A stretch of 43,906 bases of DNA from an uncultured virus (IMG/VR IMGVR_UViG_2811995274_000001) (IMGVR_UViG_2811995274_000001), one strand, 5' to 3'; positions 13,670 through 41,944 are shown, numbered from the stretch's first letter. A program made the numbers and translations. The notes: generated from the letters alone by a model not told the origin.

Positions 13670-13737
13670 CGATATTTGTATTAAGTAATATACATATTAG
13701 GTTAACCAAAAAAATAAAAAAGAAAGGCATGATTTAA

Positions 13738-17188: not shown

Positions 17189-17742
17189 CAATATTCTATT
17201 TGTTGTACATAATCTAGCCATTTAAAATCAGGGCTTGTATATCTATCTTTTTCTTTACGTAGCGTTATAGCTTTTAAATAAACACCATCTAAAGAAAAAA
17301 TTTCTAAAGATACTTCTTTCAAAAAGTGATATTCATAATCTTTTAAAATATCTTTTAAAGTGGTTTCGTCTTTTTTTCTAGCATTAGAACGCACAAATTT
17401 ATTTCTTTTATTTTTGTTTAGTTGACCTATAAAAATAGAACACTTTTCGCCACTTAAAATAGATATTTCACGTGCTATTAACTCAGAATGGTATTTATAT
17501 AATACATCATTATTATTGTTATATTTCTGTAGTTGCTGTAATGCTTCTATAGAAAAATAACCATTTGCAAAATTAAAAATATATTTTTTAATATCATTAT
17601 TAAATACTATCAGTAATTGTTTTTTACCGAATGTTACTTCATATAGTTCTAAAACATTATATTTAAAGCATTCTTCAATACTGCTAATATTTTCTATGCA
17701 GTTATTTTCTTTAGTTAGTATAGTAAATTTTATGTTAATCAT
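17188..17742 (-). CDS. Hypothetical protein (184 aa), second gene of the antisense cassette
   Basis: Start overlaps the stop of the upstream HTH gene by 8 nt; ends at the inverted repeat; no recognisable motif. Confidence 0.7.
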   Translation of the reverse strand: MINIKFTILTKENNCIENISSIEECFKYNVLELYEVTFGKKQLLIVFNNDIKKYIFNFANGYFSIEALQQLQKYNNNNDVLYKYHSELIAREISILSGEKCSIFIGQLNKNKRNKFVRSNARKKDETTLKDILKDYEYHFLKEVSLEIFSLDGVYLKAITLRKEKDRYTSPDFKWLDYVQQIEY

Positions 17743-18241
17743 TTATTATTTTCCTTTCGTTTAATCTAACTCTTAATTTGCATTCTTTTATCTGTTTTTC
17801 AGTTAAGGCTTTTTTATAGGTTTCTATTATCTCAATACTTTTAATATCACTATATTTAAGTATTTCATCATTTAAAAGTAGATCAGTCGCTTCTAAATCG
17901 TTTGTTTTAACTATAAAAATAGTGTATCCATTTAAATTATCGCCATTCGCTATTTTTACTATATGCAAAAGATTATCCAATTCTTCTTTAGATGTGTATA
18001 GTCTAACAAGTTTTATATTTGATTTTAAATTTAAAGCTATACCCCAAAAATTATTTAAGATAGAATAAGTTTCTTTTTCTGCAAATAAATTATCTAATAA
18101 TGCCAACATAGATGGTCTAGGATTTTTAAAACCCTGTTCCCACGCTTGTATAGTTTTTACAGATACAGCTAATTTATCTGCAAGTTGTTTTCTAGTCCAG
18201 CCCTTTTTAGTTCTAAGGTTTTTTAATTCTTCAATATTCAT
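17735..18241 (-). CDS. XRE-family helix-turn-helix regulator with C-terminal extension
   Basis: LKNLRTKKGWTRKQLADKLAVSVKTIQAWEQGFKNP is a canonical HTH_3/XRE motif; SD GAGGGG on the - strand. Confidence 0.9.
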   Translation of the reverse strand: MNIEELKNLRTKKGWTRKQLADKLAVSVKTIQAWEQGFKNPRPSMLALLDNLFAEKETYSILNNFWGIALNLKSNIKLVRLYTSKEELDNLLHIVKIANGDNLNGYTIFIVKTNDLEATDLLLNDEILKYSDIKSIEIIETYKKALTEKQIKECKLRVRLNERKIIND

Positions 18242-18325: not shown

Positions 18326-18384
18326 TAAAAATTTTAATAGAATTATAAGATTTACAAATGTTTAATAAGAAAGGAGAAATATTT

Positions 18385-20232
18385 ATGACTATACGAAATA
18401 TAGTTCCTAGAAATAATAGCGAAGGACAGTTAGGTACAGAAAATAAAAAATGGAATAAAATTTATACTAATGAAATATTTGCTACAAATTTTACTGGTAA
18501 CTTAACTGGAACGGCTGATAATGCTATTAAAGATAATAAAAATCAACAAATTGATGCTACATATATTAAAAATATTTCTATAAATAATGACACTTTAACA
18601 GTAACAAAAGGAAACAATGACTCTCAAAATATAGTAGTAAATAATGTATCTCATGCGATTAGTTCAGATAATGCAATAAATGCAAATAAATTACAAGAAT
18701 TAACTGCTGGAAATTCTAAGGGCCAAATTCCTATAAACAATGGAATAGAAAATGTGAACTTAAATGCTGCACTTTTAAATGGTAAAGCAAGTAGTTATTT
18801 TGCTACAAGTAACCATACACATACTACAGCTACTCAAAGTAGTAATGGGTATATGAGTAATGCAGATAAAAAGAAATTAGATGGTATTGCTAGTGATGCT
18901 GAAGTAAATCAAAATGCTTTTGCAAACGTAAAAGTAGGCTCAACTACAATTCAAGCGGATTCAAAACAAGATACATTAACGTTAGCAGCAGGGGCAAATA
19001 TTGCTTTAACACCAGATGGTAATAACGATAAGGTTACTATTGGTGTTACAGGCAAAGTAGCTAGTGCTAGTCAAGCAGATAATGCTACTAATGCTACTAA
19101 TGCTACTAATGCAACTCAAGACGGGAACGGAAATACTATAACTACCCATTATTTAAGTAGAAATCAAACAACAAAAAATGATATGAACGCTTGTACAGTT
19201 GAAGGTATTTATCGTTTTAGTGGAACTTTAAGTAATGCTTGGACAGGTACAAGTTGGGGAACATTATTAGTTCTTAACAATCAATATAATGGTGGTAGTG
19301 GGGTAAATGGTGTATATTTAGTACAATTAGCATTTCCTACTGATAATACTATCCGTATGCGACAAAGAGTAAATACTGGAGCATGGACAGGTTGGGTTAC
19401 GTTAGCACGAACTTCTGATAATGTGGCTAGTGCAACTAAAGCAACACAAGATAGTGCAGGGCAAACAATTAATACAACGTATGTAAAAGGTGTAACCGCT
19501 AATAATGCTACTTTGACTATAACAAAAGGAAATGGTTCTACTTCAACAACTACAATAAATAATGTATCAAGAGCAGAATACTCTGACAGAGTTGGAACAA
19601 ATGCAGGATATACAGGTTCAACTAAAGGAAGTTCATTAAAAGGAGGGCTTTCTCAATCTGCAATATATAACAATAGTTTTCCATTTTCATACGGAAATTT
19701 AATAAGTGTAAAAAATAGTGGAGCTAATCAAATTGCTTTAGAATGGTCTGGTACTACAGGTGCTGTTGGTAGAGTAGCTGTGAGAAGTGCTAGGGACGCA
19801 GGTATTGATACTTGGTCTGCATGGAGATATTTAGCATATACAGAAAGTCCAGCTTTTAGTGGTTCTCCTACAGCACCAACACCTGCAACCTCAGATAATA
19901 GTACAAAAATTGCTACAACAGCTTTTATACAAAATTTATTAAATAGTAAAGGTGTTATTACAACAAGTAATTTAGGGGGAAATGGATATTTTAAATTTAG
20001 TAACGGTCTTCTTATACAATATGGAAAAACTAGTATTTCTCAAAATACAACGAGTATAAATTTCCCAATTGCATTTCCTAGTAGTTGTTTTACTGTAGTT
20101 AGTGGTGGAACTTCTACTATAGTACGTGATGTTCAAACATTATCAACTACAAAGTTTACTATAGAATTAAATAGTGATTTTTTTACAATGAAGGGTACGT
20201 TACCATTTTTTTGGATAGCTATAGGAAAATAA
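18385..20232 (+). CDS. Tail fibre protein with knob-like domains and gp53-like C-terminal domain
   Basis: Start moved to ATG 18385 (SD AAAGGAG); SPAFSGSPTAPTPATSDNSTKIATTAFI fibre repeat; WGTLLV...WTGW knob-like unit; C-terminal GYFKFSNGLLIQYG...INFPIAFP...FWIAIGK. Confidence 0.88.
   Translation: MTIRNIVPRNNSEGQLGTENKKWNKIYTNEIFATNFTGNLTGTADNAIKDNKNQQIDATYIKNISINNDTLTVTKGNNDSQNIVVNNVSHAISSDNAINANKLQELTAGNSKGQIPINNGIENVNLNAALLNGKASSYFATSNHTHTTATQSSNGYMSNADKKKLDGIASDAEVNQNAFANVKVGSTTIQADSKQDTLTLAAGANIALTPDGNNDKVTIGVTGKVASASQADNATNATNATNATQDGNGNTITTHYLSRNQTTKNDMNACTVEGIYRFSGTLSNAWTGTSWGTLLVLNNQYNGGSGVNGVYLVQLAFPTDNTIRMRQRVNTGAWTGWVTLARTSDNVASATKATQDSAGQTINTTYVKGVTANNATLTITKGNGSTSTTTINNVSRAEYSDRVGTNAGYTGSTKGSSLKGGLSQSAIYNNSFPFSYGNLISVKNSGANQIALEWSGTTGAVGRVAVRSARDAGIDTWSAWRYLAYTESPAFSGSPTAPTPATSDNSTKIATTAFIQNLLNSKGVITTSNLGGNGYFKFSNGLLIQYGKTSISQNTTSINFPIAFPSSCFTVVSGGTSTIVRDVQTLSTTKFTIELNSDFFTMKGTLPFFWIAIGK
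19081..19116 (+). repeat. In-frame 9-bp tandem repeat encoding (NAT)4
   Basis: AATGCTACT x3 followed by AATGCAACT within the fibre gene. Confidence 0.85.
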
Positions 20233-20901: not shown

Positions 20902-20919
20902 AAAAGGAGTGAAATATTT

Positions 20920-21222
20920 ATGTCTACACGCAATATAGTCCCTAGAAGCGACAATGAAGGACAATTAGGAACAGAACAAAAGAAATGGGCAAAAATATAT
21001 ACTAATGAAATATCTGCTACAAACTTTATAGGTAATTTAACAGGAACTGCAAATAAAGCGTTAGAAGATAATAATGGAAATGAAATAACTTCAACTTATG
21101 CTACTAAAAACGAATTAAATTTAAAATTAGATGCTAATATTGTTGGTAATGAAGCAAATAAAATACCAAAATTTAATTCTGAAGGACATCTTATTCTACC
21201 AACAGGAATAGAAATATATTAA
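20920..21222 (+). CDS. Short tail-fibre-like protein, paralogue of the 18385 N-terminus
   Basis: MSTRNIVPRSDNEGQLGTEQKKWAKIYTNEISATNFIGNLTGTA versus MTIRNIVPRNNSEGQLGTENKKWNKIYTNEIFATNFTGNLTGTA; ends ANKIPKFNSEGHLILPTGIEIY. Confidence 0.75.
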   Translation: MSTRNIVPRSDNEGQLGTEQKKWAKIYTNEISATNFIGNLTGTANKALEDNNGNEITSTYATKNELNLKLDANIVGNEANKIPKFNSEGHLILPTGIEIY

Positions 21223-29598: not shown

Positions 29599-31287
29599 AT
29601 GACAATTTACAAACCTATGTTGAATCAAATCAATGGTGGTGCAGAACTAAGAAGTGATGTAGATGCATTACAGAAATCTTATGATGCTGCAAAAGTTATT
29701 ACTACTGTAAGTAAAGAAGAAGAAGGCAATTATAACGCTGATGAATTGTTTAAAAAAATTCAAAGCGATATTACTGCATTAGATTCTAAAACTGAATCAA
29801 ATTTAGAATCATTTAAAAATAAAGTAGTAAAAGATATTGTAAAAGTTGAAATGACTGCTACTTATGAAGTAGATCACTTTACAGTTACATTACCAGAAGA
29901 ATTTGATTCTTTAGTTCCTAGTGCTGATAAAGGAACACCTGTAGCTATTTATAATCTAGACAATAGCGCTGTAATTGGCGAAGATGGAGAACAGTTAACT
30001 ATTAATTTAACAAATATGACTTTATCTGGAACACCATCTAAAATAGATCCTGAAGGATCAGCTGGATTAGAAGAAGGCGAAATTGCTTATAAACCTATTC
30101 AAGAAACTTTTAAATTTAAATGTTTTCCAGTAGGTACTTTTAGCTTATTTAATATTCCAGATAATTATCTTCTTGATAATTCTGAAATGCAACTTGTTCA
30201 TTATGACAAAGCCTTACATTCTATCGTTGCTGATTTAGCTCAAGATCAATCTTTAATAGATAAAATTTCTGGATTAGTTGGTGAAGAAGCAGTAGCTTCT
30301 CAAATTAATAAAGTAAAAGCTGAATTAGTTCGAACAGATGAAGAGTTAAAACAACGTGCAACTGCTATTGAAGTTTATGTAAAAGAAGCAGGTTTAGATG
30401 CTAACTCTAAAAAAGTTATTAACGTAGCAGATGGAGAAATTGTTTCTGAAGGTAAAAACGCTGTTAACGGTGGTCAGGTTTATACTGTTAAAACAACATT
30501 AGAAGCCAAAGATACTGAATTAGAACAATCTATAACTGAATTAGAAGAAAATGTAACAACTAATCATGAAGCATTGTCTGGTCGTGTAACTAAAGTTGAA
30601 GCTTATGTTAAAGAAACAGGCTTAAATGCTAATTCTAAAAAAATCGTTAATGTTCTTGATGGAGATATCTCTGAGTCTAGTACAGATGCTGTTAATGGAA
30701 AACAGTTAGATACTATTAATAAAGCATACAAAGCAGCAGATGCTGGATTACAAGCATCTATTTCTAGCGTACAAGAAGATTTAGAAGCTAAAAATTCAGC
30801 AATGAACGATCGTGTAGCTATTATTGAAGGCTTTGTTACTAGTGGTGGCATTAATGCTGGAAATAAGAAAGTTACTAATGTGTTAGATGGCGAAATTGCT
30901 TCTGAAAATAAAGATGCTGTTAATGGTGGACAAGTATACGCAATTAAAACAGCATTAGAAGCTAAAGACGCAGAAATAGAAGGTAAACTTTCTGCTGCTA
31001 CTGTTAAAGTAACATTACCTGTAGAACATGTACAAGAATTTGCGCTTAATGGTGAAGCTATGACAGAATTTGTCTTAGAAGCTAAACCAAATTCTTATAA
31101 AGTTACTATGAACGTAAATGGTATTGTTTACGAAGAAGGTATGGGAGCATTTACTGTAGATAGAGAAAGTGAAAATAAACTTACTTGGGTAGCTCCGGAC
31201 TTTGAACTTAAACAAGATGTTGCAAAAAAAGTTTTTGTACGTTTCGTAGAAAATAAAGAAAGTTCAATTGCTTTAACTTTAGGATAA
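29599..31287 (+). CDS. Fibre protein with three YadA-stalk (trimeric autotransporter neck)-like repeats
   Basis: Units at 30394, 30622 and 30850 (228-nt period): [L/I].A..KK[V/I].NV.DG.I......AVNG.Q, each followed by a heptad coiled coil; no signal peptide or beta-barrel anchor seen. Confidence 0.75.
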   Translation: MTIYKPMLNQINGGAELRSDVDALQKSYDAAKVITTVSKEEEGNYNADELFKKIQSDITALDSKTESNLESFKNKVVKDIVKVEMTATYEVDHFTVTLPEEFDSLVPSADKGTPVAIYNLDNSAVIGEDGEQLTINLTNMTLSGTPSKIDPEGSAGLEEGEIAYKPIQETFKFKCFPVGTFSLFNIPDNYLLDNSEMQLVHYDKALHSIVADLAQDQSLIDKISGLVGEEAVASQINKVKAELVRTDEELKQRATAIEVYVKEAGLDANSKKVINVADGEIVSEGKNAVNGGQVYTVKTTLEAKDTELEQSITELEENVTTNHEALSGRVTKVEAYVKETGLNANSKKIVNVLDGDISESSTDAVNGKQLDTINKAYKAADAGLQASISSVQEDLEAKNSAMNDRVAIIEGFVTSGGINAGNKKVTNVLDGEIASENKDAVNGGQVYAIKTALEAKDAEIEGKLSAATVKVTLPVEHVQEFALNGEAMTEFVLEAKPNSYKVTMNVNGIVYEEGMGAFTVDRESENKLTWVAPDFELKQDVAKKVFVRFVENKESSIALTLG

Positions 31288-31298
31288 AATACATATAA

Positions 31299-31346
31299 TT
31301 ATAATAAAAGCCTCCCTATAAAAAAAAGGGGAGGCTTTTATTATAA
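31299..31346. terminator. Intrinsic terminator
   Basis: TTATAATAAAAGCCTCCC ... GGGAGGCTTTTATTATAA, 18-bp arms. Confidence 0.88.
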
Positions 31347-31406
31347 CGACATATTTTTATAGTAATACTTTTTTAGATATTATAAAGATGTTATGAGGTG
31401 AATACA

Positions 31407-32789
31407 ATGTCTAGAAGAATGCCTAGAGGTGTTCGTAAAGTAAATGAAAACATAATACAAGATGGTCGTTCTTTAATCATAAATGAAGAAAATGAAAAAA
31501 ATATATCATGGGAAAATATACCTGATGGTTCAATAAAAATAAATTCTTCTAATGGTATGATGTATGTAAAAATAAAAGGAGAATCTGACTGGATTCCAGC
31601 TGGAATAAAAAATGATGGTACCTTATCTATAGCTAAAGATACATTTATCATAGAAGAAATATTTACTATAAAAACTTTATCTGATGGTAATGGAGAATTT
31701 TCTTATTATAATACAGAAGGAGAAGTACGACACGGAGAATTATTGGAAGACGGTTCTTATGTATTTACATTAGAAAAAGGCTCTTATCCTATGCTTAGAA
31801 ATCATTTAGAAATTATAATTGATGATGCATTACGTAGAACAGCTATTTCTGGTGGAATAAAAGAAATATCTAATACAAAATTTGCTATAACTGAAAAATT
31901 AGTTGTAGATCAAGAAATTACTGTAAGGTATTTAAGTAGTAATAGGATAGGAAATCCTTATCCTAGAATATTTTTAACTTCATATACTCCAGAACAGGCA
32001 GAAAACGGAGATTTATGGTTAGATTATGATGCAACATTAGATGATGATGATTTAATAGGAGAAGATATTGAAGCTGATACTGTAATAGGTTGGGATAGAA
32101 TCGTTGGGAAGCCAACTACAATAAATGGATATGGTATTATAGACAATATTTCTTATGTAGACCATAAACATAAAATGGAAGATATTACTGATTTAAGTTT
32201 TCCAAATACTAATAAAGCTAATGGTGGTAATGCGGATACAGTAAATCACTATACTGCTGATAATAATAAGCCAAATACATTAGCTATTTTAGACTCTATA
32301 GGGCAATTACCATCTGCTAATATAGGTTCTCATAGACATAATGTGACAGATATAATAGACCTAAATAATTTTAAGCCAACAGGCGGTAATGCAGATACAG
32401 TAAATCATTATACAGCGGACAATAATAATCCTAACACATTAGCTATTTTAGATTTAAATGGACAAATTCCTTCTAATAAAATAGCTTCTCATAAACATAA
32501 TATATCAGATATAAATGATTTAAACAGTAAAATTTCTAATATAGAAAATTCTTTAAATGCAATTTTTACTAGAGGAATGATTATACAATGGTATGGATCA
32601 GCTTCTACTCCTCCATCTGGATGGGCAATTTGCAATGGATCTAATGGGACACCAGATTTACGTAATAAATTTATTGTAGGAGCTGGTTCTTCATATAATT
32701 TAGGAAATGCAGCAAGCGTAGTTTCTAAACAATCAGGCACAGTATCTAATTCTACAATATATGCTTTGTACTATATTATGAAATTATAA
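31407..32789 (+). CDS. Tail fibre protein with C-terminal tail-collar domain
   Basis: Start moved to ATG 31407 (SD GAGGTG); WDRIVGKPTTINGYGI, HxH...DI.DL fibre motifs; GMIIQWYGS...PPSGWAICNGSNGTPDLRNKFIVGAG...YALYYIMKL. Confidence 0.88.
   Translation: MSRRMPRGVRKVNENIIQDGRSLIINEENEKNISWENIPDGSIKINSSNGMMYVKIKGESDWIPAGIKNDGTLSIAKDTFIIEEIFTIKTLSDGNGEFSYYNTEGEVRHGELLEDGSYVFTLEKGSYPMLRNHLEIIIDDALRRTAISGGIKEISNTKFAITEKLVVDQEITVRYLSSNRIGNPYPRIFLTSYTPEQAENGDLWLDYDATLDDDDLIGEDIEADTVIGWDRIVGKPTTINGYGIIDNISYVDHKHKMEDITDLSFPNTNKANGGNADTVNHYTADNNKPNTLAILDSIGQLPSANIGSHRHNVTDIIDLNNFKPTGGNADTVNHYTADNNNPNTLAILDLNGQIPSNKIASHKHNISDINDLNSKISNIENSLNAIFTRGMIIQWYGSASTPPSGWAICNGSNGTPDLRNKFIVGAGSSYNLGNAASVVSKQSGTVSNSTIYALYYIMKL
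32223..32525 (+). repeat. Two-copy 159-nt (53-aa) internal duplication
   Basis: GGNADTVNHYTADNN.PNTLAILD..GQ.PS..I.SH.HN..DI.DLN starting at 32223 and 32382, synonymously diverged. Confidence 0.85.
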
Positions 32790-32804
32790 TAAGGAGGTAC
32801 GTTA

Positions 32805-34496
32805 ATGGCGCTAGATAATAAATATGATAATTTTTCTAAATACAAAGGAAAAATAAAGATTAGAAATTTAGATCCAGAAGTTATTTCTCTTATTAACACA
32901 GGAGGATCTTCTGGTGGTTCTGGATACGATGATACAGAAATAAGAAATGATCTAGAGTCTATTCATGATACATTAGATTCTCATGATAATTTAATTAATA
33001 ATATTAACACTAAAATTAGTAGTGCTGCTACGAAAACAGAATTAAATCAATTTAGGAGAAAAGATGTTGATATTACATATAATGACTTAGATCCTGATCT
33101 AAAAGAAAGATTAAGAAATAAAGATTCAGGATCCGGTGGTTCATCAGACAATGATGACGATATTTTAACGGAATTGGAAGAATTAAAATCAAAAGTAACT
33201 ATTAATACTGGAAATATTAACAATAATACTTCAAATATTAATAGCATATCACAAGCATTAGATAACTATAAAACAGAATCTACTAACAAAAATAATGAAC
33301 AAGATGCTACTATTTCTAGCAATACTAATAGAATTCAACAGTTAGAAAATAAAGTTACTGAAAATAATGAAATTACTTTTGATGATTTAGATCCAGATTT
33401 AGCTGTTAAAATTGAACAAATTAATAATTTTTCTTCAGATATTAATAGTCTTGAACAAAAAGTGTCTAATAATACATTAAGTATAAGTAATATTAATTTA
33501 GATCTTTCTAATTTAACATCAAACTTCTCAGATTTAAGTCAAAGCATTGATTCAAAAATTAATAATATTAATGAAGTTGTTGAACAAAATACTAATAATA
33601 TTGACGATATAGATAATACATTAAATACATTAACAATTGATAAAATTATTAGTTTCACTAATACTCCTGAAGAGCCAGATAAAGGAAAAATAAAAATTAA
33701 TAATTTAACTTCTGATTTAGCAGATAAAATTAATAATTTATCTAGCTTTAGTACAGATATAGAAGATATTAAAAATTCAATTATTCATCCAGGTAGAAAT
33801 ATAATTGGACAAGATAATCAATTTGTATATAAAAATGGAGAAGATTTATACACAAAAAGAATATTTTCTTTTTTTAATACAGCTTCAACAGAAGAAGAAT
33901 TTTCATCTCTGAAAACTCAAAATAAAAGTCCAATTTACTACAGAGTAGATAATAATATATATGAAGTATCTGGATCAGATTGGATAGCTGTTGAGGACGG
34001 TTTATCAAATGTAAATTATAATAATATTTATTTGTTCGATCCTGAACATGGAAGTTTTTACTTTAATGACAATGGATCTTTAATCAACATTTTATCTCAA
34101 GATGATATGGATAAAGGCTTGTTCTTGGGTAATTGGTCATTTATACCAGGCGAAAATACTTTTCAACTTAAATATTTAGACGACGTTTTTCAAGAATGGA
34201 GCGTTTCTGATACAGATACAAATACATTAAACGATAATATTTCTTTAATGTCCTTAAATGATAATGATAAAAATGATGAATATACTGAATTAATTTATAC
34301 AATAAACAAAAAAGATTCTACATCTATAAAATTAAACAAAAAACAACAGTATACATGTAAAATACTAATATTAGATAAAGCAACTGGACTATACACTGAT
34401 TATGATTATAAAATGTTTAAAACATATTATCTATCAGATAGTATAAAAATTTTTAATTTAACAGATTCATCAATAACAATCAAAATAGTATATTAA
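32805..34496 (+). CDS. Coiled-coil fibre-like structural protein
   Basis: SD AAGGAGGT; repeated I...[N/D]LDP[D/E] motifs, GGSSGGSGYDDTEIR linker, Asn-rich heptads. Confidence 0.6.
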   Translation: MALDNKYDNFSKYKGKIKIRNLDPEVISLINTGGSSGGSGYDDTEIRNDLESIHDTLDSHDNLINNINTKISSAATKTELNQFRRKDVDITYNDLDPDLKERLRNKDSGSGGSSDNDDDILTELEELKSKVTINTGNINNNTSNINSISQALDNYKTESTNKNNEQDATISSNTNRIQQLENKVTENNEITFDDLDPDLAVKIEQINNFSSDINSLEQKVSNNTLSISNINLDLSNLTSNFSDLSQSIDSKINNINEVVEQNTNNIDDIDNTLNTLTIDKIISFTNTPEEPDKGKIKINNLTSDLADKINNLSSFSTDIEDIKNSIIHPGRNIIGQDNQFVYKNGEDLYTKRIFSFFNTASTEEEFSSLKTQNKSPIYYRVDNNIYEVSGSDWIAVEDGLSNVNYNNIYLFDPEHGSFYFNDNGSLINILSQDDMDKGLFLGNWSFIPGENTFQLKYLDDVFQEWSVSDTDTNTLNDNISLMSLNDNDKNDEYTELIYTINKKDSTSIKLNKKQQYTCKILILDKATGLYTDYDYKMFKTYYLSDSIKIFNLTDSSITIKIVY

Positions 34497-34510
34497 AAAG
34501 GAGAAATAAT

Positions 34511-35470
34511 ATGGCAATTTTAAAATATAATAAAGATAATAAATGGACGTCTTTATATTCTGATGCAATAAAAAATAGATTAAAAAAATCAAATAATTTA
34601 TCAGACTTAGAAAATATAGAAGAAGCTAGGACTAATTTAGAGCTTACTGGAGATAATAATCATACACATTACCATGATGATAGATACCTTCCAAAAATAG
34701 AAGCAGAACAAGAACAACGTATTGCTGAAGATAATAGTATTAAAGAAATGATAAGTTCACAAACCAATGAAATTAATAATTCAATTAATACAGCAATAGA
34801 TTCTGTAAATAAAACTATTGAAGAAAAAATAGATTCTAAAATTAATGATAAATATTCAGAATTAAAAAATGACATCAAAGAAGAAGCAGATATTAGAGCA
34901 TCTGAAGATGCCAAATTAAAAAATTCAATTTCTTCGTTAACTAATACTATTAATTCTATTAATAATTCTATGGATAGCAAAAACGATGAATTACAACAAA
35001 AATTAGAGAACGAAATATCCGAAAGAAAAAATCAAGATACACTTGCTTCTAATGATAGAAATAGCATAAAGACAAAACTAAATAATGAAATAGAAGAAAG
35101 AAAGAATCAGGATATTATTGCTTCTAATGATAGGAATACTATAAAAAATAGTATTTTAACTGAAACATCTGAAAGAAAAACAGCCGATCAAAATCTACAA
35201 AATCAAATAAACGCCAATAAAAATCAAGTTAATACTTTGTTATCTAAACAAACAGTTTCTGGATCAACCCAAGGAGCAATTTCAAGTGTGGGAGATTATG
35301 ATTCCGGTACATATCGTACAACTTTTAAAACTAATACTGGAATAGGTTCTGGCACATACAGTTTAAATGATTTACTTATTAAACTTGTACAAATGAGTCA
35401 TACTCATAGCGGTTCATCTGCAAAAATAAACTGCAACTGTAATTGCAATTGTAATAGCCATAGTCACTAA
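34511..35470 (+). CDS. Fibre-like coiled-coil protein with C-terminal (Asn-Cys)4 motif; candidate radical SAM substrate
   Basis: LKKSNNLSDLENIEEARTNL and HTHYHDDRY fibre motifs; E..ER..[Q/A]D coiled-coil repeats; ends SHTHSGSSAKINCNCNCNCNSHSH. Confidence 0.7.
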   Translation: MAILKYNKDNKWTSLYSDAIKNRLKKSNNLSDLENIEEARTNLELTGDNNHTHYHDDRYLPKIEAEQEQRIAEDNSIKEMISSQTNEINNSINTAIDSVNKTIEEKIDSKINDKYSELKNDIKEEADIRASEDAKLKNSISSLTNTINSINNSMDSKNDELQQKLENEISERKNQDTLASNDRNSIKTKLNNEIEERKNQDIIASNDRNTIKNSILTETSERKTADQNLQNQINANKNQVNTLLSKQTVSGSTQGAISSVGDYDSGTYRTTFKTNTGIGSGTYSLNDLLIKLVQMSHTHSGSSAKINCNCNCNCNSHSH

Positions 35471-35505
35471 GAAAGGAAAGATAATTAAAAAGAAGGAGAA
35501 TGTAT

Positions 35506-36213
35506 ATGAATTTATATAGTTATAAAACTACAAAAGATTGTCCTTTTCAGACTATAATTGTTAAAGATAATATTATAACATTAAGTATAACTTTAAATAA
35601 CCAAAGAGATGCATATATAAAAACAAAAATTATAGATATATCAAAATTGGATAAAAATAAGATATATACTTTAAATTATTTAATAGATGGATATTATCAA
35701 TTTTTAATTGATGATGAACATGAACCAATTTCTGAATATGCAGCTTTAAGAATATACATATCTAATAATAATGCTGTCGAATTATATTCTCCTATAAATA
35801 TTTACATATCTGAAACATCTGAACAAATCAATAGAATTTATTTAGATAATTTTGGTAAATTTAATTTTAGAGCAGAAATATCAAATAAATATCTAGAATA
35901 TCAAGAAAAAAGTAAAAAGATTGCTTATCATGATATGTTACATGATTTGATAGATGCTAATTACTCATGTACGTGTCAAGACGCTCAAATAGAAATTTTA
36001 ACAAAAATAATATTAAATATTCTAAAAAATAATCCTAAAATAATTACTGAGGACTGTTTGAGTAATTTAGATACAGTTATAAATTCATTAAACGACACAT
36101 CATTATTTAATATTAAAAATGAAGAAAGTATTATTAAAGAAATAGAAAACAAAAAATATATACGTAACTTACAAAAAGAATATTATTCTTTAAAAAGTAA
36201 TATGGAGGACTAA
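35506..36213 (+). CDS. Hypothetical protein; possible chaperone or accessory factor of the fibre/radical SAM locus
   Basis: SD AAGGAG spaced for ATG 35506; beta-like N-half, helical C-half; sits in the slot where fibre chaperones usually lie. Confidence 0.55.
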   Translation: MNLYSYKTTKDCPFQTIIVKDNIITLSITLNNQRDAYIKTKIIDISKLDKNKIYTLNYLIDGYYQFLIDDEHEPISEYAALRIYISNNNAVELYSPINIYISETSEQINRIYLDNFGKFNFRAEISNKYLEYQEKSKKIAYHDMLHDLIDANYSCTCQDAQIEILTKIILNILKNNPKIITEDCLSNLDTVINSLNDTSLFNIKNEESIIKEIENKKYIRNLQKEYYSLKSNMED

Positions 36214-36220
36214 ATATAAT

Positions 36221-36445
36221 ATGGATAATGTAAAGGATATATATATTAATAGCATTAATGAGCTCCACAAAGGCGCTATAGCAATATATGATGAGATTTT
36301 CATTAATAATATAAAATCATTTAAAGTTATCATTAATGATTATTCTGACAAATATATTGATAAATTAGCTATATTTGCAGATATATTAAATGATATGTCT
36401 AAACAATTTAACGTAGAAATAATGGTATCTATTAATGAAAAATAA
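36221..36445 (+). CDS. Small hypothetical protein (74 aa) coupled to the first radical SAM gene
   Basis: SD GGAGG; 3' end overlaps the start of 36435. Confidence 0.6.
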   Translation: MDNVKDIYINSINELHKGAIAIYDEIFINNIKSFKVIINDYSDKYIDKLAIFADILNDMSKQFNVEIMVSINEK

Positions 36446-37388
36446 AAAATTAGCTATTTATATAAACGATATATGTAATAGAAATTGTTCTTTTTGCTAC
36501 GTCAATAAAACAAATAAAATTATGACATTGGAGACCGCCAATAAAATTATTTCTTATATCAATGATAATGATATATATAAAACTATAATATTTGTTGGTG
36601 GCGAACCAACATTAACTCCTGACTTAATAAAATATTTTATAGATAATATTAAAATTAACGTAAAATATGGAGTAATGACTAATGGAATAATAAAAAATTT
36701 AGACATATTTAAACCATATAAAAATCTTACTTTTAATATATCATTTATCAATGAAAAAGATCCGGATAATTACTATAAAGAAATGACTATTAAAAAACTT
36801 AATGATTTAAATATTAAATATAATGCTTTGATAGTTAATACACCAAATAATATTGTTAATTTACTAAATATATTTAAATACATAATAAAATTAAAACCAA
36901 CATATATTAAATTATTGAGACAGCATAAAATGGGAGATATCTGGACATTAAATGATATATACAAATATAAAGAAATTCTTCCTAAATTAATACATTTTAG
37001 TATTTATTGTAAAGAAAAATTTAAAACATATAATCAGATAAGTTTGCCTAATAAAATAGACATACCTATACGATATAGTTCTGAAGTTTATGATAAATTT
37101 GAAATTAATTTAGTAGATCAAGATTCTATTTGTAAATATGATATTGTAGGAGTAGATGGAAAACAATACTTATGTGACGGAGCTTGTGGAGAGAATAAGT
37201 ATTGTTTTGGTTATATTTGGGATAAACCTAATAATCCGTACTTAATACATAATTTTGGATATGAAGATGTATTATATGATTATTGTTATTTAGCTAATAA
37301 TAAAGTATGTTTAGATTTCGATAAAATTAATGATGAATATAGAGATTATTATAATAATATTATTTCTAAGATTGAGGGATTAAAATGA
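36435..37388 (+). CDS. Radical SAM protein 1 (Twitch-like C-terminus)
   Basis: CNRNCSFC (CxxxCxxC), FVGGEPTL, MTNG; C-terminal SICKYDIVGVDGKQYLC. Confidence 0.92.
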   Translation: MKNKKLAIYINDICNRNCSFCYVNKTNKIMTLETANKIISYINDNDIYKTIIFVGGEPTLTPDLIKYFIDNIKINVKYGVMTNGIIKNLDIFKPYKNLTFNISFINEKDPDNYYKEMTIKKLNDLNIKYNALIVNTPNNIVNLLNIFKYIIKLKPTYIKLLRQHKMGDIWTLNDIYKYKEILPKLIHFSIYCKEKFKTYNQISLPNKIDIPIRYSSEVYDKFEINLVDQDSICKYDIVGVDGKQYLCDGACGENKYCFGYIWDKPNNPYLIHNFGYEDVLYDYCYLANNKVCLDFDKINDEYRDYYNNIISKIEGLK

Positions 37389-38230
37389 GAACATATGATA
37401 ATAGTACAACAGTTTCTTTACATATAACAGATAGATGTAACTTAAGATGTCCACACTGTTATATGAAAGATTTTTCTGGTTATGAAAATAATATAAATAT
37501 TAAAAAAGCATTTGAATCCGTAAAAGTATTAAAGCCAAAAACTTTAATCATTTACGGAGGAGAACCTATGTTATACCCTAATATTATTAATCAAATTTTT
37601 GATGAATTTGAAAATAATATGCATGTAGTAGTAGCTACTAACGGTACTATATGGAATAAAGAAATATATGATAGAGCATATATTATTATGGTTACTTTAG
37701 AAAGTTTCTTTTTTAACTATTCAAAGAATAGAACGTACACAAGATCTCAGTATAATAATTTAATAAAATTAATAGATACTTATAAAGATAAATTAATTTT
37801 AACTCATAACTTATACCCTAAAAACAACGATCCATTCTACGATAGAATGATTAAATTAACAGAACTAAATAGTAATCCATATCCTATAGTAGATTTTTGT
37901 GAAGAAGCAGATTTTGAGCCTAATATTTTACAAGAATATAATACTAACTTAAATCCTTTGCTTGTACCAAAATTAAGAGTTCTCCCAGATGGTACGATAA
38001 CTAAAGATATGAGAGGCGTCTATAATATATGTAAAGATGCAAGTGAATGGAAAGAAGAATACAGAAATAAATCTGTACCTAGTCATGATAAATGTAAAAA
38101 ATGTGAATATCAATATACTTGTCCTTCTTATAAGATGTTCCCACATTTTTGTAAAGATGTCTTAGATAGAATAGACGATCCACATTTTTGTAAGATTGCG
38201 AGATGGAAAAGTAATGAATTCAAAAATTAA
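37385..38230 (+). CDS. Radical SAM protein 2 (partial SPASM)
   Basis: CNLRCPHC, IYGGEPML, ATNG; C-terminal CKKCEYQYTC...HFC; overlaps the upstream gene by 4 nt. Confidence 0.92.
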   Translation: MRTYDNSTTVSLHITDRCNLRCPHCYMKDFSGYENNINIKKAFESVKVLKPKTLIIYGGEPMLYPNIINQIFDEFENNMHVVVATNGTIWNKEIYDRAYIIMVTLESFFFNYSKNRTYTRSQYNNLIKLIDTYKDKLILTHNLYPKNNDPFYDRMIKLTELNSNPYPIVDFCEEADFEPNILQEYNTNLNPLLVPKLRVLPDGTITKDMRGVYNICKDASEWKEEYRNKSVPSHDKCKKCEYQYTCPSYKMFPHFCKDVLDRIDDPHFCKIARWKSNEFKN

Positions 38231-39344
38231 AAAATTCTTTGATACAGATATAGATAAAGTTTATATTTTATTAGGCGATTATTGTAATATGAAATGTAAA
38301 TATTGTTTCCATAATAATGATGTTATGCCTTATATTGACGAAAAAATCAATGAAGATATATTTCCTTTTATAGAAACAATTGCTTCTCGACAAAAAAGCC
38401 CATTAAACGTTAGATTTTTTGGAGGAGAGCCATTAATATATTTTGATAAAATGAAATATATTATAGAAAAATTAGCTCATGTCCCTAATATATTTTTTAC
38501 TACTATTACAAATGGAAAATCAATAACTCAAGAGATAGTAGATTTTTTTAATAAATATAATGTAATGGTAAGCGTTAGTTGGGACGGACACAAGGCTTCA
38601 AAAGAATTTAGAGGTTTTGATTGTTTTGATACTAATAAAAATTTATTATTACAGTTAAAAAAAGTCGAAGTTCTTGCTACGTTTGTTAATTTTTTAAAGA
38701 TAGACGATTTTTTATCTGATTTAGAAAATATAAATAATGAGTATTTTAATATTCATGGAGAAATTATTGGTTTTACTTGGGCTCCTATAGATGATGTTGG
38801 TAGTCAAAAAGAATATTTAAGTAAAGCAATGTTTGATGATTTATATAAAAAATCTGAAGAAGTATGTAATAGAGTTAAAGACGCAATTAGAAAAAAACAT
38901 AAAACACCATTTGATTTAGTTATGATATATGCCCTATATTCTGATTTATGTACTATAGAATCAAGAGATTTTGGTACAAGTGCTGAACGACTTATTGCAG
39001 AAGGAAGCGATAATCCTAAAATCTATTCAATTGATTTAAATGGAGATTTTTATCAATTTCATAGATATCCTAAAAGTTCTTCAAAATCTAAAAAATTAGG
39101 TAATATATATATGCATTATTATGCTTATATGCAATCATATTTAAGTCAAAATAAGTTTGCTGAACAATGTGCAAGAGTAGGATGCTATAATTGCGATATA
39201 AATCATTTTTGTAAAGGACCTGGTCCTCACGTTTGTGAAGAATCAGAAAAGAAATGTTGTCGTATTAGATACGCTTTATATAAACCTATTGTTAATTTAA
39301 TAGAATGGCTTCAGCATGGAGGAATAGATCTGCATGATTTATGA
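38214..39344 (+). CDS. Radical SAM protein 3 (anSME-like, degenerate SPASM)
   Basis: CNMKCKYC, FFGGEPLI, ITNG, VSWDG; C-terminal CYNCDINHFCKG...C...CC. Start probably ATG 38214. Confidence 0.92.
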   Translation: MNSKIKKFFDTDIDKVYILLGDYCNMKCKYCFHNNDVMPYIDEKINEDIFPFIETIASRQKSPLNVRFFGGEPLIYFDKMKYIIEKLAHVPNIFFTTITNGKSITQEIVDFFNKYNVMVSVSWDGHKASKEFRGFDCFDTNKNLLLQLKKVEVLATFVNFLKIDDFLSDLENINNEYFNIHGEIIGFTWAPIDDVGSQKEYLSKAMFDDLYKKSEEVCNRVKDAIRKKHKTPFDLVMIYALYSDLCTIESRDFGTSAERLIAEGSDNPKIYSIDLNGDFYQFHRYPKSSSKSKKLGNIYMHYYAYMQSYLSQNKFAEQCARVGCYNCDINHFCKGPGPHVCEESEKKCCRIRYALYKPIVNLIEWLQHGGIDLHDL

Positions 39345-40170
39345 TGAAGATAGAGCTATATTTTTTGAAATAACTAATATATGTAATCATAGATGTATTC
39401 ATTGTTGTAAACAATGGGAAGATAACAGTATAAATAGAATAGCTTCTTTTGAAACTTTAGATAAAATTATTTCTTTGCCTAAAAAATCTTTAACTATATC
39501 TGGAGGAGAGCCTTCATTGGTTAGAGATAAAGTATATTATTTAATAAATAATGAGTCTAAACATATTACTATTAATACTAATTTAACTGGTTGGAGTAAG
39601 CAAGATATAGCATTTATTAATAATAATGATAAAACTAATTTTAATGTGTCTGTTGTTTCTCTTAAAAGAGATATTTATGAAGAAATAACTAAATCTATTA
39701 CATATGATATTTTTATCAAAAATTTAAATTTGTTAAACAATAAACATTACATAACTATTGTTGTAAATAATATAAATTTAGATAGTGTAGATTTTACTAT
39801 TAAAATTTTATTGTTAATGGGTTTTAAAAATATACTTGTTACTCCTCAAGTGCCTACACCTAATCTAAGTGTTGATGTTAATTTAGTAATAAACATGGTT
39901 AAAAATCTTCATAACAAATATAACAATATTGCTAATATAGTTACTCAAGGATTTTGTAATTTAGATTTTTGTGATCATAAATGCGAAGCTGGTATAGGAA
40001 GATTTTTAATAGATACAAAAGGAGACGTCTATCCATGCGCTCCAATACATAGAGAATGTAAATTAGGAACTATAGATACTGATATAGATATTTTAAAAAG
40101 AAATGGTACAAATTTCTTTTTAAGTTACAATGATCAACAAAAATTTTTATGTAAAGGTTTTATGCTTTAA
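39334..40170 (+). CDS. Radical SAM protein 4 (Twitch/SPASM first half)
   Basis: CNHRCIHC, ISGGEPSL; CEAGIGRFLIDTKGDVYPC; SD GGAGGA. Confidence 0.92.
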   Translation: MIYDEDRAIFFEITNICNHRCIHCCKQWEDNSINRIASFETLDKIISLPKKSLTISGGEPSLVRDKVYYLINNESKHITINTNLTGWSKQDIAFINNNDKTNFNVSVVSLKRDIYEEITKSITYDIFIKNLNLLNNKHYITIVVNNINLDSVDFTIKILLLMGFKNILVTPQVPTPNLSVDVNLVINMVKNLHNKYNNIANIVTQGFCNLDFCDHKCEAGIGRFLIDTKGDVYPCAPIHRECKLGTIDTDIDILKRNGTNFFLSYNDQQKFLCKGFML

Positions 40171-40180
40171 GGAGATTTTT

Positions 40181-41275
40181 ATGTTAGAAATAAAACATGA
40201 TATAAACACAATATTTGTTATGTTAGGACAACAATGTAATTTAAATTGTAAATATTGTATGCAACATGATTTAATTATTGATGTGCTTCCTAAAAGATTT
40301 ATTCACCATGATATTATTAATTTTATTAAATATCATGCTAATAAACAGGAAAGACCTATAGATATACGATTTTATGGAGGAGAACCATTAATATATTTTA
40401 ATGATATAAAACAAATTGTTAATTTATTAAAAGAAGATAATGTTTCTTTTTCTATAATATCTAACGGAAAGTTGATAAATGAAAATATAGTAAAATTTTT
40501 TAATGATAATAATTTTTCGAGTGTAGCAATTAGTTGGGACGGTATTGATAGTATTAAAACAAGACTATATGATGTTTTTAAAGAAAAACAAAATTTACTT
40601 TTAAATATAAATAATCTTTGTATTAGTGGAGTTATTTCATCCTTTAATTATCCAAATTCTTTTATCAATTCTATAAAACCTTTTATAGAAGAATATTATC
40701 GTATCCATAATTATATGATAAATTTTTCAAAAGATGAAATAATGGATATGAATGCATGTCATTCTGATTTAAGGACATTTGATTATAATGAAATCAATAA
40801 ACAAATGAATATTTTAGTTAATAATATAAAAAAATCATTTGTTAATATGGAAACTAGTAACATAAGTTTAAATGATTATCTATATATATCACTATTTACT
40901 ATGTATTGTAATTCTATACAATCTGGATTAAACAGTTATACTCGAAGCTTTTGCGGCAATGGAATAAATGTTATCAATTTAGATTTAGAAGGTAATTTAT
41001 ATCAATGTCATAATAATTGGATTAAAATAGGAGATATCAATTCTGACTATAATACTTACATCTTAAAAGCAAAAGAGTTAGATACTATTACACTTAATAA
41101 TTTTAATAGTACTTGTAAAAACTGTTCTATTTTATCCTTATGCAAATGTGGATGTCCATTAATTAAACAAGATATTAGAAAAAAAACTGATTTTTGTAAG
41201 TTACGTAAAGCTATATATGAGCCTATCATAAATTTAGTCAATGAAGCTATTGCTAACAATGGTTCTTTTTATTAA
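40181..41275 (+). CDS. Radical SAM/SPASM protein 5 (anSME/peptide-maturase-like)
   Basis: CNLNCKYC, FYGGEPLI, ISWDG; complete SPASM CGNG...GNLYQC...CKNCSILSLCKCGC...FC. Start ATG 40181 behind AAGGAG. Confidence 0.94.
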   Translation: MLEIKHDINTIFVMLGQQCNLNCKYCMQHDLIIDVLPKRFIHHDIINFIKYHANKQERPIDIRFYGGEPLIYFNDIKQIVNLLKEDNVSFSIISNGKLINENIVKFFNDNNFSSVAISWDGIDSIKTRLYDVFKEKQNLLLNINNLCISGVISSFNYPNSFINSIKPFIEEYYRIHNYMINFSKDEIMDMNACHSDLRTFDYNEINKQMNILVNNIKKSFVNMETSNISLNDYLYISLFTMYCNSIQSGLNSYTRSFCGNGINVINLDLEGNLYQCHNNWIKIGDINSDYNTYILKAKELDTITLNNFNSTCKNCSILSLCKCGCPLIKQDIRKKTDFCKLRKAIYEPIINLVNEAIANNGSFY

Positions 41276-41329
41276 ATATATAATCTATCATAAAAGAGGA
41301 GAATATTTTAAATAAATGGAGTTGATAGC

Positions 41330-41707
41330 ATGAGTGAAGAAAATTCTCATGTACTACAAGAATTAATAATGCAAACAATGGATAATGTTAGAGAATTAAC
41401 AAAACAATTCTCAGAAGTTAAAACATTATTAAGTTCTAGTATGCAAAATAATAATGACATAAATAAACTTTTAGTAGAAAGAGCTGATAGGCATAGAGAA
41501 GAAATTAATAAACTAAAAGATGACGTTAGAAATTTAATGCATTCTCAAATCGATTTAGAAGAATATGATACATTAAAAGATGATGTTGCCGATTTACAAG
41601 AATCACGCTCTGCTACAATTAAAGTTTTTACTATTATAGGCGGATTAATAGGAACTATATTAACTTCCGCTGCTGCTATTTTTATAGATAAGTTTATACT
41701 AAAATAA
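41330..41707 (+). CDS. Holin-like/XhlA-like membrane protein (coiled coil plus C-terminal transmembrane helix)
   Basis: Hydrophobic VFTIIGGLIGTILTSAAAIFI at the C-terminus after a coiled coil; last gene of the late operon. Confidence 0.5.
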   Translation: MSEENSHVLQELIMQTMDNVRELTKQFSEVKTLLSSSMQNNNDINKLLVERADRHREEINKLKDDVRNLMHSQIDLEEYDTLKDDVADLQESRSATIKVFTIIGGLIGTILTSAAAIFIDKFILK

Positions 41708-41748
41708 TAAAAGAGAGCACGATTAAAGTGCTCTCTTTTATTATTTTA
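41700..41748. terminator. Bidirectional terminator between convergent operons
   Basis: TAAAATAATAAAAGAGAGCAC-gattaaa-GTGCTCTCTTTTATTATTTTA. Confidence 0.9.
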
Positions 41749-41944
41749 AATCTAATTCATAAAATGTATTTGAGTTTTTATCAAAATCATAGATTTCATA
41801 GATCTCATTATTGATTAAATTAATTAATGATCCATCTGTATTCATAATATAGTATCCACAATTATTTTCATTTCCGATAATTTTAATCGTTTTTCCTTTT
41901 GCCAATAATTCTATAGCTTTTAGTTTATTTATCTCTTTTATCAT
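41741..41944 (-). CDS. Hypothetical protein (67 aa)
   Basis: SD GAGGT on the - strand; overlaps the end of the excisionase-like gene. Confidence 0.6.
   Translation of the reverse strand: MIKEINKLKAIELLAKGKTIKIIGNENNCGYYIMNTDGSLINLINNEIYEIYDFDKNSNTFYELDLK

Follow-up and report, generated by a model that had tools for sequence, protein, structure and literature searches.

The maturation of Cys-rich peptide or protein termini by radical S-adenosylmethionine (SAM) enzymes of the SPASM type is enzymology of a known kind. NxxcB, from a streptococcal system (RaS-RiPP) that makes a peptide synthesized by ribosomes and modified after translation (RiPP), forms a bond between the Cys sulfur and the beta-carbon of the Asn that lies three residues upstream within an NxxC motif, and tolerates other acceptors (PMC9389541). 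The acceptors of PapB are Asp or Glu located C-terminal to the Cys (PMC12373016). In Methanococcus voltae, the SPASM enzyme CrpC equips a full-size protein, CrpA, with thioether (ranthionine) bridges in its Cys-rich C-terminal region (PMC13692751). In virus particles, HxH pairs recur in trimeric fibre tips, including that of T4 gp37, and coordinate iron (PMC11705849). The locus described here lies in 43,906 nucleotides (nt) of DNA from an uncultured virus (IMG/VR IMGVR_UViG_2811995274_000001); this whole stretch is referred to as the window. Positions 34511..41275 form a block of genes, all on the plus strand, for a fibre-like protein (fibNC), two accessory proteins (acc237 and acc74) and five radical SAM enzymes (rS1 to rS5).

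Receptor-binding fibre tips decide the host of a phage and are treated today as plain polypeptides. We consider it probable, at roughly 60%, that the five enzymes form a battery whose task is to mature the C-terminal tip of the fibre encoded directly upstream, a reading drawn from sequence analysis. New in this reading would be a virion fibre as substrate, an Asn-Cys ladder bracketed by HxH pairs, and a rare battery of five enzymes that have no N-terminal RiPP recognition element (RRE) and come with two dedicated accessory proteins. A full-text literature search, from which subscription-only papers were absent, turned up no report of phage fibres modified by radical SAM enzymes and none of the NCNCNC motif. 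An earlier, sequence-only reading of the same DNA had already placed two accessory open reading frames (ORFs) and a fibre-like protein with a Cys-rich tail ahead of the enzymes, and the present analysis found them there.

The Asn-Cys tail of the fibre and its radical SAM neighbours

The features of the fibre gene on which the argument turns are the following (aa, amino acids):

34511..35470, plus strand: fibNC, fibre-like, 319 aa, in which an N-terminus of fibre type and a middle rich in repeats are followed by a C-terminal tail unit
35351..35467, plus strand: the tail unit (last 39 aa), made of an amphipathic stretch TYSLNDLLIKLVQ, SHTH, a 7-residue linker, (NC)4-N and SHSH
35429..35455, plus strand: the Asn-Cys ladder NCNCNCNCN, with three overlapping NxxC registers

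The C-terminus of fibNC reads NCNCNCNCNSHSH, and longer stretches of its end read ...MSHTHSGSSAKINCNCNCNCNSHSH and ...TYSLNDLLIKLVQMSHTHSGSSAKINCNCNCNCNSHSH. All four Cys of the protein are within the ladder, and the three neighbouring fibres (463–563 aa) have one Cys each. Because the ladder is written in a mixture of AAC or AAT and TGC or TGT codons, which differ synonymously among lineages, it has been kept as a peptide and not as a microsatellite. The gene also has an internal 72-nt repeat at 34999..35145. We propose the tail unit as the substrate of the enzymes, with a putative leader-like segment followed by a core.

A homologue of acc237 was found at five loci, counting the window, which belong to three lineages (acc237 identity 30–49%, G+C content 25–43%). 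The other four are:

L001, a 207-kb viral contig of 43% G+C, with radical SAM orthologues at 37–61% identity
L223, a 303-kb metagenome contig of 28.6% G+C, with radical SAM orthologues at 53–76% identity
L224, a partial contig close to L223, of 29.9% G+C, which ends inside rS1
L222, a metagenome contig of 25.6% G+C, near-identical to the window (94–99.7%)

In all five, a fibre with HxH, a linker, (NC)3-4 and HSH is encoded directly upstream of the acc237 homologue, and downstream of the latter come a small protein of 67–74 aa and then the enzymes. Orthologues of fibNC are 47% identical in L223 and L224 and 97% in L222. The full set of five radical SAM orthologues was present at each of the four loci with enough DNA, in a shuffled order in L001 (rS1, rS2, rS4, rS5, rS3). 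Since each enzyme has its own orthologue at four loci, the battery is old and every member of it has been kept; by these alignments, the five are individually conserved orthologue pairs, not recent duplicates.

The comparison with L001 revealed a reciprocal swap of tips. Shaft A (31398..32789 in the window; 4901..6430 in L001) ends in a collar tip in the window and in a ladder tip in L001, whereas shaft B (34511..35470 in the window; 13543..14058, 171 aa, in L001) ends in a ladder tip in the window and in a collar tip in L001. Residues 1–104 of fibNC are 37% identical to the N-terminus of this 171-aa collar-tipped fibre. Despite the exchange of shafts, it is the ladder-tipped gene that adjoins the battery in both the window and L001. 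As aligned, the tip behaves as a module, and the battery goes with it rather than with the shaft.

The tail unit has the form T-Y/F-x-x-L/M-x-x-x-L-x-x-L-x-x-HxH, followed by the linker and the ladder. When it was aligned between the window, L001, a further locus (L084) and small proteins from L011, L019, L063 and L106, the residues T, L, L and H and the stretch NCNCNC were invariant; the unit is also found in L223 and L224, there with (NC)3. The HxH pairs that bracket the ladder are SHTH and SHSH in the window, SHNH and THSH in L223 and L224, and AHSH and DHSH in L001, and hence are present in three lineages.

The association was also approached from the side of the tail. A degenerate DNA pattern for (NC)4 was found at 121 or more viral loci, of which 58 had at least 4 kb downstream and were counted, and 63 were too short in flank. 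A ladder tail was taken as one in frame and at most 20 aa from the stop of an ORF of at least 60 aa, and a radical SAM neighbour as a same-strand homologue of the window enzymes starting within 4 kb. Among the matches listed, such a neighbour was found downstream in 31 of the 32 ladder-tailed loci versus none of the 26 others (Fisher p = 1.2e-15), the latter being short ORFs, protein interiors and non-coding DNA. The proportions were similar when counted by distinct 30-residue tails (24/25 versus 0/25), and also in a looser count in which short-flank loci were admitted when matching (40/41 versus 1/27), again among the matches listed. The sequence-only reading had asked whether such batteries consistently neighbour a Cys-repeat protein, and this is borne out by the five acc237 loci as well as by these counts. 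Co-occurrence seen from the tail and from the battery thus supports the link between enzymes and tail both ways.

Most of the ladder-tailed proteins look like fibres. They have 300–620 aa, and 9 of the 12 sampled from other phages matched PHROG tail-fibre families, with collagen repeats in two of the 12. The commonest architecture differs from that of the window and consists of a ladder-tipped fibre, a 250–320-aa protein ending ...VKVGFKYWSG..., and one radical SAM enzyme of 450–490 aa with an N-terminal extension. Among the 'orphan' radical SAM genes of phage genomes, some are annotated as MoaA or as arylsulfatase regulator.

A separate observation concerns a 134-aa protein of Cys-Gln repeats that itself ends in an Asn-Cys ladder (...YCQSCQGCQTCQGCQ...TNCNCNCNCSNCDCGDDGG; L034 9968..10372 and L075 85..486). 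It adjoins the closest relative of rS5 outside the batteries (36% identity over the full length) and links Cys-Gln with Asn-Cys ladder systems.

The five enzymes and the chemistry they may perform

The enzyme genes span 36435..41275, and each overlaps the following one by 4–41 nt:

36435..37388, plus strand: rS1, 317 aa, with four conserved C-terminal Cys in a twitch-like arrangement (C-x13-C-x3-C-x32-C); orthologues 37% (L001) and 61% (L223) identical
37385..38230, plus strand: rS2, 281 aa, compact SPASM-type, with seven conserved C-terminal Cys
38196..39344, plus strand: rS3, 382 aa, PapB/CteB-like, a paralogue of rS5 (29% identity) lacking the first two SPASM Cys, with four conserved Cys
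39334..40170, plus strand: rS4, 278 aa, with six conserved C-terminal Cys (Cx4Cx3C-x17-C-x6-C-x30-C)
40130..41275, plus strand: rS5, 381 aa, with the full canonical seven-Cys SPASM arrangement (C-x17-C-x35-CxxCx5Cx3C-x13-C)

The alignments of rS5 orthologues begin at residue 18, so its true start may be Met18 (40181). Conserved Cys are those common to the window and the L001 orthologue. As had been described from the sequence, these are five consecutive, overlapping or abutting radical SAM genes with CxxxCxxC, GGEP and C-terminal Cys, four to seven of which are conserved in each. The single CxxxCxxC lies at residues 14, 18, 30, 17 and 36 of rS1 to rS5, respectively, and GGEP at residues 55, 58, 76, 57 and 83. 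With CxxxCxxC so close to the N-terminus (residues 14–36), there is no room for an N-terminal RRE.

The seven-Cys motif of SPASM domains, with its two auxiliary clusters, reads C-x9-15-G-x4-C ... CxxCx5Cx3C ... C. In profile searches, the radical SAM assignment held for all five enzymes, which passed Pfam Radical_SAM (PF04055) with 44.8–50.4 bits against a cut-off of 29.5, but the SPASM assignment did not carry over to Pfam, where only rS4 matched and stayed below the cut-off (16.7 versus 21.5 bits); its six Cys stand in an order other than the canonical one. Against NCBIfam, for which the best 25 rows per enzyme were compared, PapB (NF047865; curated equivalog cut-off 340 bits) gave 100.2 bits for rS5, 96.6 for rS3, 43.2 for rS1, 41.1 for rS2 and 32.8 for rS4. 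It was the best curated profile for rS1, rS3 and rS5, matched the full length of rS3 and rS5, and was followed in the rows of these two by other peptide maturases and the anaerobic sulfatase-maturating enzyme (anSME). The best curated profile was prokaryotic viperin for rS2 and MoaA for rS4. The sulfatase maturase profile TIGR03942 (cut-off 349) scored 64.6 bits with rS5, 59.6 with rS3 and 21.0 with rS1 and was not among the best 25 rows of rS2 and rS4, and the CrpC-type profile TIGR04463 (cut-off 525) was outside the best 25 rows of every window enzyme, its score being 57.8 bits for a 587-aa relative from L011.

By sequence, the solved structures nearest to rS5 are those of CteB (5WGG and 5WHY, E 4e-9), and those nearest to rS3 are 8VPO (E 3e-9) and then the same two CteB entries (E 4e-9). 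In a profile search, rS4 came nearest to SkfB (6EFN, E 3e-5), and rS1 came nearest to viperin-like enzymes, in the radical SAM core only (E 2e-3). An AlphaFold2 model of rS2 (predicted local distance difference test, pLDDT, 90; 16-sequence alignment) was compared by Foldseek and best matched the anSMEcpe structure 4K39, at a template modelling (TM) score of 0.67 (0.60–0.67 for 4K36–4K39), followed by CteB 5WGG at 0.62 and viperin-like enzymes at 0.53–0.58. Altogether, the enzymes resemble SPASM enzymes that modify Cys in peptides or proteins (PapB, CteB, anSME, SkfB), and the evidence favours action on peptidyl cysteine.

The rS2 family is rare: out of 1.84 billion proteins searched, 12 representatives match at E<=1e-30. 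A search of viral contigs with the rS2 alignment found a full-length rS2 only on the L001 contig. The same search of genome contigs responded to the generic stretch around CxxxCxxC and gave 80 loci that match mainly the N-terminal part of the enzyme, covering at most residues 1–191 of 281, with no full-length orthologue, and these candidates were set aside.

The same tip could be the target of another chemistry. Candidates, perhaps in combination, are the formation of formylglycine that anSME carries out, an epimerisation like that of YydG/EpeE, and C-C or C-O cross-links through Asn or His; several chemistries combined would explain why there are five different enzymes, of distinct types, for three or four Cys. 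The rS2 model, which fits anSMEcpe ahead of CteB, points in this direction, as do the weak match of the rS2 profile to the epimerase YydG, the presence of EpeE in the rS2 fold list, and His-Xaa-Ser system profiles among the weak NCBIfam rows. The anSME profile, however, reaches at most 64.6 bits of the 349 required, and the tail contains no match to the sulfatase target motif, C/S-x-P/A-x-R. Moreover, what the wider sample conserves is the alternation of Cys in the ladder, in keeping with Cys being the residue that reacts. We regard a different chemistry on this tip as unlikely, and thioether formation at its Cys remains the favoured reading.

It could also be that the tip simply binds metal or an Fe-S cluster, with no enzyme involved or with cluster insertion only, and that the radical SAM enzymes have a different substrate (nucleotide, cofactor or host protein, for example) and owe their place next to the fibre to regulation. 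HxH pairs bind iron in T4 gp37 (PMC11705849). CxC ladders would be plausible metal ligands, and rS1 and rS2 match viperin-like enzymes and rS4 MoaA and QueE-like profiles, over the core. Such an arrangement would nevertheless make it hard to explain, without a direct link, why ladder tails of unrelated fibres have a same-strand radical SAM gene immediately downstream in 31 of 32 cases against none of 26. Nor did the Pfam scan of 16 ORFs, from 29599 to the window's end, detect deazaguanine or molybdopterin companion genes, and all five enzymes have kept auxiliary-cluster Cys, which is typical of SPASM/twitch peptide modifiers, though MoaA has one such cluster too. We therefore judge a plain metal-binding tip to be highly improbable beside the proposed maturation of the tip by the battery.

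Free-standing tail proteins, accessory proteins and the setting of the block

In some phages, the tail unit is a protein of its own, of 65–79 aa, as in L011, L019, L063, L106 and the cultured Ralstonia phage RP12. The RP12 version is an unannotated 65-aa ORF (L221 1843..2040; NC_041911.1, about 82888..83085) that ends ...LLSHTHVFYDNYGSNCNCNCACTRGSL and whose stop overlaps the start codon of ORF075. The genes are ordered as a fibre-like 'virion structural protein', the 65-aa ORF, ORF075, ORF076–079 and ORF080. ORF076, 077 and 079 carry a radical SAM annotation, and ORF078 encodes a degenerate protein of radical-SAM-like type; the 65-aa ORF is likely the substrate of ORF076–079. The four-enzyme battery, to which the tail unit is linked in RP12, L011, L019 and L063, is orthologous among the first three and distant from that of the window, the sole full-length counterpart being rS5 and ORF079 (25% identity, E 7e-22).

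Also in RP12, ORF074 (L221 1382..1759, 125 aa) has two copies of the leader-like stretch and HxH (…WIQHTHNYYDYYW…, …LVNAIRSHTHYSPDGSY) without the Cys ladder, and it matches the 65-aa ORF with E 8e-5.

Because the tail unit stands free in these phages, a released peptide may be conceived: the fibre or the 65–79-aa protein would be its leader or carrier, from which the ladder peptide, once modified, would be cut off to be used, for example, against competitors, in lysis or in the control of superinfection. The stand-alone forms, with a variable N-terminus, the recognition stretch and the ladder, do resemble leader-plus-core precursors, and the enzymes resemble RiPP maturases. In addition, the RP31 virion table lists 32 proteins from gel bands and none of ORF69–76 around the battery (PMC5468394, Table S3). 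The 65-aa ORF, being unannotated, could not be detected in those data, and its own absence is uninformative. On the other side, no peptidase or exporter was matched by Pfam in the 16 ORFs that it covered between 29599 and the end of the window. The plus strand holds no ORF of 20–120 aa (stop to stop) with at least four Cys in 34000..41800, and the intergenic gaps of the block (29, 7 and 54 nt) are too short to leave room for a separate precursor gene, in agreement with the sequence-only reading, which had seen no such precursor, peptidase or exporter. The ladder ends proteins of 300–620 aa, mostly of tail-fibre families as sampled above, and the L001 battery lies amid fibre genes. HxH pairs like those flanking the tail are typical of fibre tips (PMC11705849). 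A released product therefore seems to us quite unlikely.

Next to the proposed substrate and the battery are three further proteins:

35500..36213, plus strand: acc237, 237 aa, with a beta-sandwich (residues 1–115) and a helical C-terminal half, specific to the battery
36221..36445, plus strand: acc74, 74 aa, without Cys, judged from its sequence to be helix-strand-helix-strand
41330..41707, plus strand: a protein of 125 aa, hydrophobic in its C-terminal segment and conserved immediately after the battery

Neither accessory protein matched a family in Pfam, NCBIfam or PHROG. Identity of acc237 to its homologues is 30% in L001, 47% in L223 and 49% in L224, and six relatives were found among 5.8 billion proteins. 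Its AlphaFold2 model (pLDDT 75) had no Foldseek match in the Protein Data Bank (PDB) at E<=0.001; its matches in BFVD were uncharacterised phage proteins, including one of 295 aa from RP12, which is the length of ORF075. Positional counterparts of acc74 have 67 aa in L001 (26% identity) and 69 aa in L223 and L224, and otherwise only near-identical relatives were found; the order of its elements differs from that of PqqD. It may be that acc237 is an adaptor or chaperone.

Several candidate relationships of these proteins were rejected. In VIA-align wide, the best hit of the acc237 fold had Z 6.2, with generic helical rows, and SPP1 gp22 fell on the beta-sandwich with Z 5.8, which was unconvincing. 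Kinship of acc237 to the accessory protein of about 300 aa in RP12-type phages, or to the one ending '...VKVGFKYWSG', had a profile-profile probability of at most 0.2%, with shallow alignments. Look-alikes in the ESM Atlas, at scores of 0.84 for acc74 and 0.78 for acc237, belonged to unnamed clusters only.

The 125-aa protein has a 103-aa counterpart at L223 15823..16134 (34% identity) and one in L222 (96%), and its family matches were limited to weak coiled-coil ones; it is possibly a member of the module.

From the fibre gene through the 125-aa gene, the intergenic distances are 29, 7, -11, -4, -35, -11, -41 and 54 nt. No terminator-like site was found on the plus strand between 32789, where the fibre gene 31398..32789 ends, and 41275, so that the fibre, accessory and enzyme genes may form one late operon. 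A terminator-like match at 31943..31965 lies inside the fibre gene 31398..32789. Contigs from RNA-type libraries (170–727 nt, two studies) cover parts of the fibre, acc237, rS1–rS5 and 125-aa genes; with DNA carry-over possible, they are compatible with transcription of the block and no more.

The window itself (43.9 kb, about 25% G+C) looks like the fibre-encoding end of a temperate phage, with a long run of plus-strand genes, many of which match PHROG tail and tail-fibre families, and, by the Pfam scan, an excisionase-like helix-turn-helix gene and then a tyrosine integrase at its right end. The integrase and some fibre tips are like those of phages of low-G+C Gram-positive bacteria. Relatives of its genes occur on contigs of 207 kb (L001), 303 kb (L223) and 325 kb (that of an acc237 relative, P0005), and the nearest virus record (G001) has 47 kb and is rated 21% complete; for these reasons, the phage is probably very large. 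No rS5 was found in G001, but that record does not extend over this region of the window and is thus uninformative as to whether rS5 is present. Near-identical DNA was present in gut, farm and dust metagenomes according to run records: 14 runs have at least half of the sampled words, and 20 runs, from 14 studies, hold any part of them. Compared by blastn with 50,697 phage records, the block had no match, and tblastn with rS5 against phage records gave distant matches only (at most 38% identity, partial lengths), the best being those of the Ralstonia phages RP12 and RP31.

Other features of the window were noted in passing. Relatives of its genes lie on large contigs, yet it ends in an integrase and an excisionase-like gene, and the virus may thus be a very large temperate phage. 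Directly after the fibre gene 29599..31287 is an inverted repeat (31287..31358) with 30-nt arms, 83% complementary and 12 nt apart, and a GGGAGGC core; this hairpin is likely the terminator ahead of the gene block 31398..41275. Convincing inverted repeats flanking the fibre genes, which would be a sign of invertible tips, were not found. Two minus-strand genes at 17188..18241, one of them encoding a repressor-like helix-turn-helix protein (PHROG transcription regulators), break the plus-strand run of fibre genes; they could represent an inserted element or an island of regulatory genes. A 164-nt direct repeat of 80% identity (18376..18539 and 20911..21074) gives similar N-termini to the fibre gene 18358..20232 and the 100-aa ORF 20920..21222, and several further short repeats are common to fibre genes of the window.

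Proposed maturation of the tip and comparison with known systems

Several results weigh against a maturation battery for the fibre tip. One ladder-tailed locus, L077, had sufficient flank and no radical SAM gene within 4 kb, and the counts of the pattern scan rest on the matches listed, with 63 of the 121 or more loci uncountable. No enzyme reached a curated equivalog cut-off, the best being PapB with 100 of 340 bits, and hence the chemistry cannot be read from family membership. The closest PDB sequence matches of rS2 (E 1e-7) are nucleotide-acting viperin-like enzymes, over the core only, and the best NCBIfam rows of rS4 are MoaA, with a further match to a QueE-like PHROG. The free tail proteins of RP12-type phages resemble a classical RiPP precursor, and the RP31 virion table is of the same tendency. 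Finally, five different enzymes have been kept for only three or four ladder cysteines; several reaction types, chain-to-chain links or enzyme complexes could possibly underlie such a set.

Weighing these points together with the co-occurrence, we propose the following course of events. The fibre, the two accessory proteins and the enzymes would be co-produced late in infection from one tightly overlapping gene block. The tip would be a self-contained unit, in which an amphipathic stretch (TYxxLxxxLxxL) is followed by an HxH pair, a short linker, (NC)3-4 and a terminal HSH; the stretch before HxH would serve for recognition, like a RiPP leader placed just ahead of its core. Since the enzymes are devoid of an N-terminal recognition domain, acc237, acc74 or both may bring the tip to them. 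The cytoplasm being reducing, disulfides would not form there, and the enzymes would modify the ladder Cys by means of SAM-derived radicals and auxiliary Fe-S clusters. The most likely product would be non-reducible thioether bridges from the Cys sulfur to a carbon of a neighbouring residue, for which the nearest precedent is the Asn beta-carbon in the NxxC register, as with NxxcB. The bridges could lie within one chain or between fibre chains, and the flanking HxH and HSH pairs probably bind metal on the fibre axis, as HxH does in T4 gp37.

As to the fibre tip being the substrate, the sequence-only reading is supported by co-occurrence in both directions and by the tail-fibre matches, but the anaerobic host that it assumed is not general, given that RP12 is a phage of Ralstonia solanacearum, which is an aerobe. 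Thioether staples, being covalent and non-reducible, would last in any environment. A fuller version can be offered tentatively, as a possibility somewhat short of even odds: phages would build a non-genetic, thioether-stapled fibre tip, its staples perhaps interchain and the tip itself perhaps metal-bearing, that resists reduction and proteolysis, and the free 65–79-aa version would be a detachable tip subunit.

If the battery does act on the tip, a covalent modification escapes structure prediction, host-range prediction and fibre engineering, and fibres produced in the enzymes' absence may fail to function. This would amount to a new class of virion maturation; it would also be a widespread factor in adsorption and stability, and one invisible to sequence-based prediction of host range. 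Chemistry of the RiPP type would reach virus particles as well as small secreted peptides, the presence of many 'orphan' radical SAM genes in phage genomes would be explained, and an enzyme set acting on a short, portable C-terminal tag would be at hand. With five enzymes free of recognition domains and two accessory proteins, the battery is also a small system in which to study how such enzymes locate a substrate the size of a protein.

Among known systems, NxxcB and its substrate NxxcA share with the window the NxxC substrate motif, three registers of which are present in NCNCNCNCN. NxxcA, however, is a short, leader-dependent peptide served by one enzyme, whereas the window has the end of a 319-aa fibre and five enzymes. 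Of the ranthipeptide systems PapB/PapA (freyrasin) and CteB/CteA (SCIFF), the former provides the best curated profile for rS1, rS3 and rS5, and the latter the nearest or joint-nearest solved structure by sequence for rS5 and rS3 and the second by fold for rS2; their donors are Cys in repeated motifs, as in the ladder. They differ from the window in that rS3 and rS5 score 96–100 of 340 bits, its enzymes have no RRE domain, its Cys have Asn as neighbours and its proposed substrate is a fibre. CrpC is set apart from the window enzymes by an N-terminal RRE, by different substrate motifs and by belonging to an archaeal, cellular system rather than a viral one; in the main text of PMC13692751, the word 'virus' occurs twice and 'phage' not at all.

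The anSME offers the precedent of a SPASM enzyme whose target is a Cys in a full-size protein, as proposed here, and is the best structural match of the rS2 model; its product is formylglycine and not a cross-link, and TIGR03942 gives at most 64.6 of 349 bits. T4 gp37 shares HxH pairs in a fibre with the window but is not known to have a Cys ladder or dedicated enzymes, and metal binding in the window would be by analogy with it. The RP12-type batteries are like that of the window in having a LxxLxxHTH...NCNCNC tail unit, an accessory protein of about 300 aa, several radical SAM genes and an adjacent virion structural or fibre gene. They are unlike it in that the tail unit is a free protein of 65–79 aa, the enzymes are four, some of them N-terminally extended, and the accessory protein is not detectably related by profile comparison. 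From a classical RiPP, the window differs in that the ladder ends a 319-aa protein, that the block has no small Cys-rich ORF and that the 16 ORFs scanned include no peptidase or exporter; what it has in common with one is the leader-like stretch ahead of the core.

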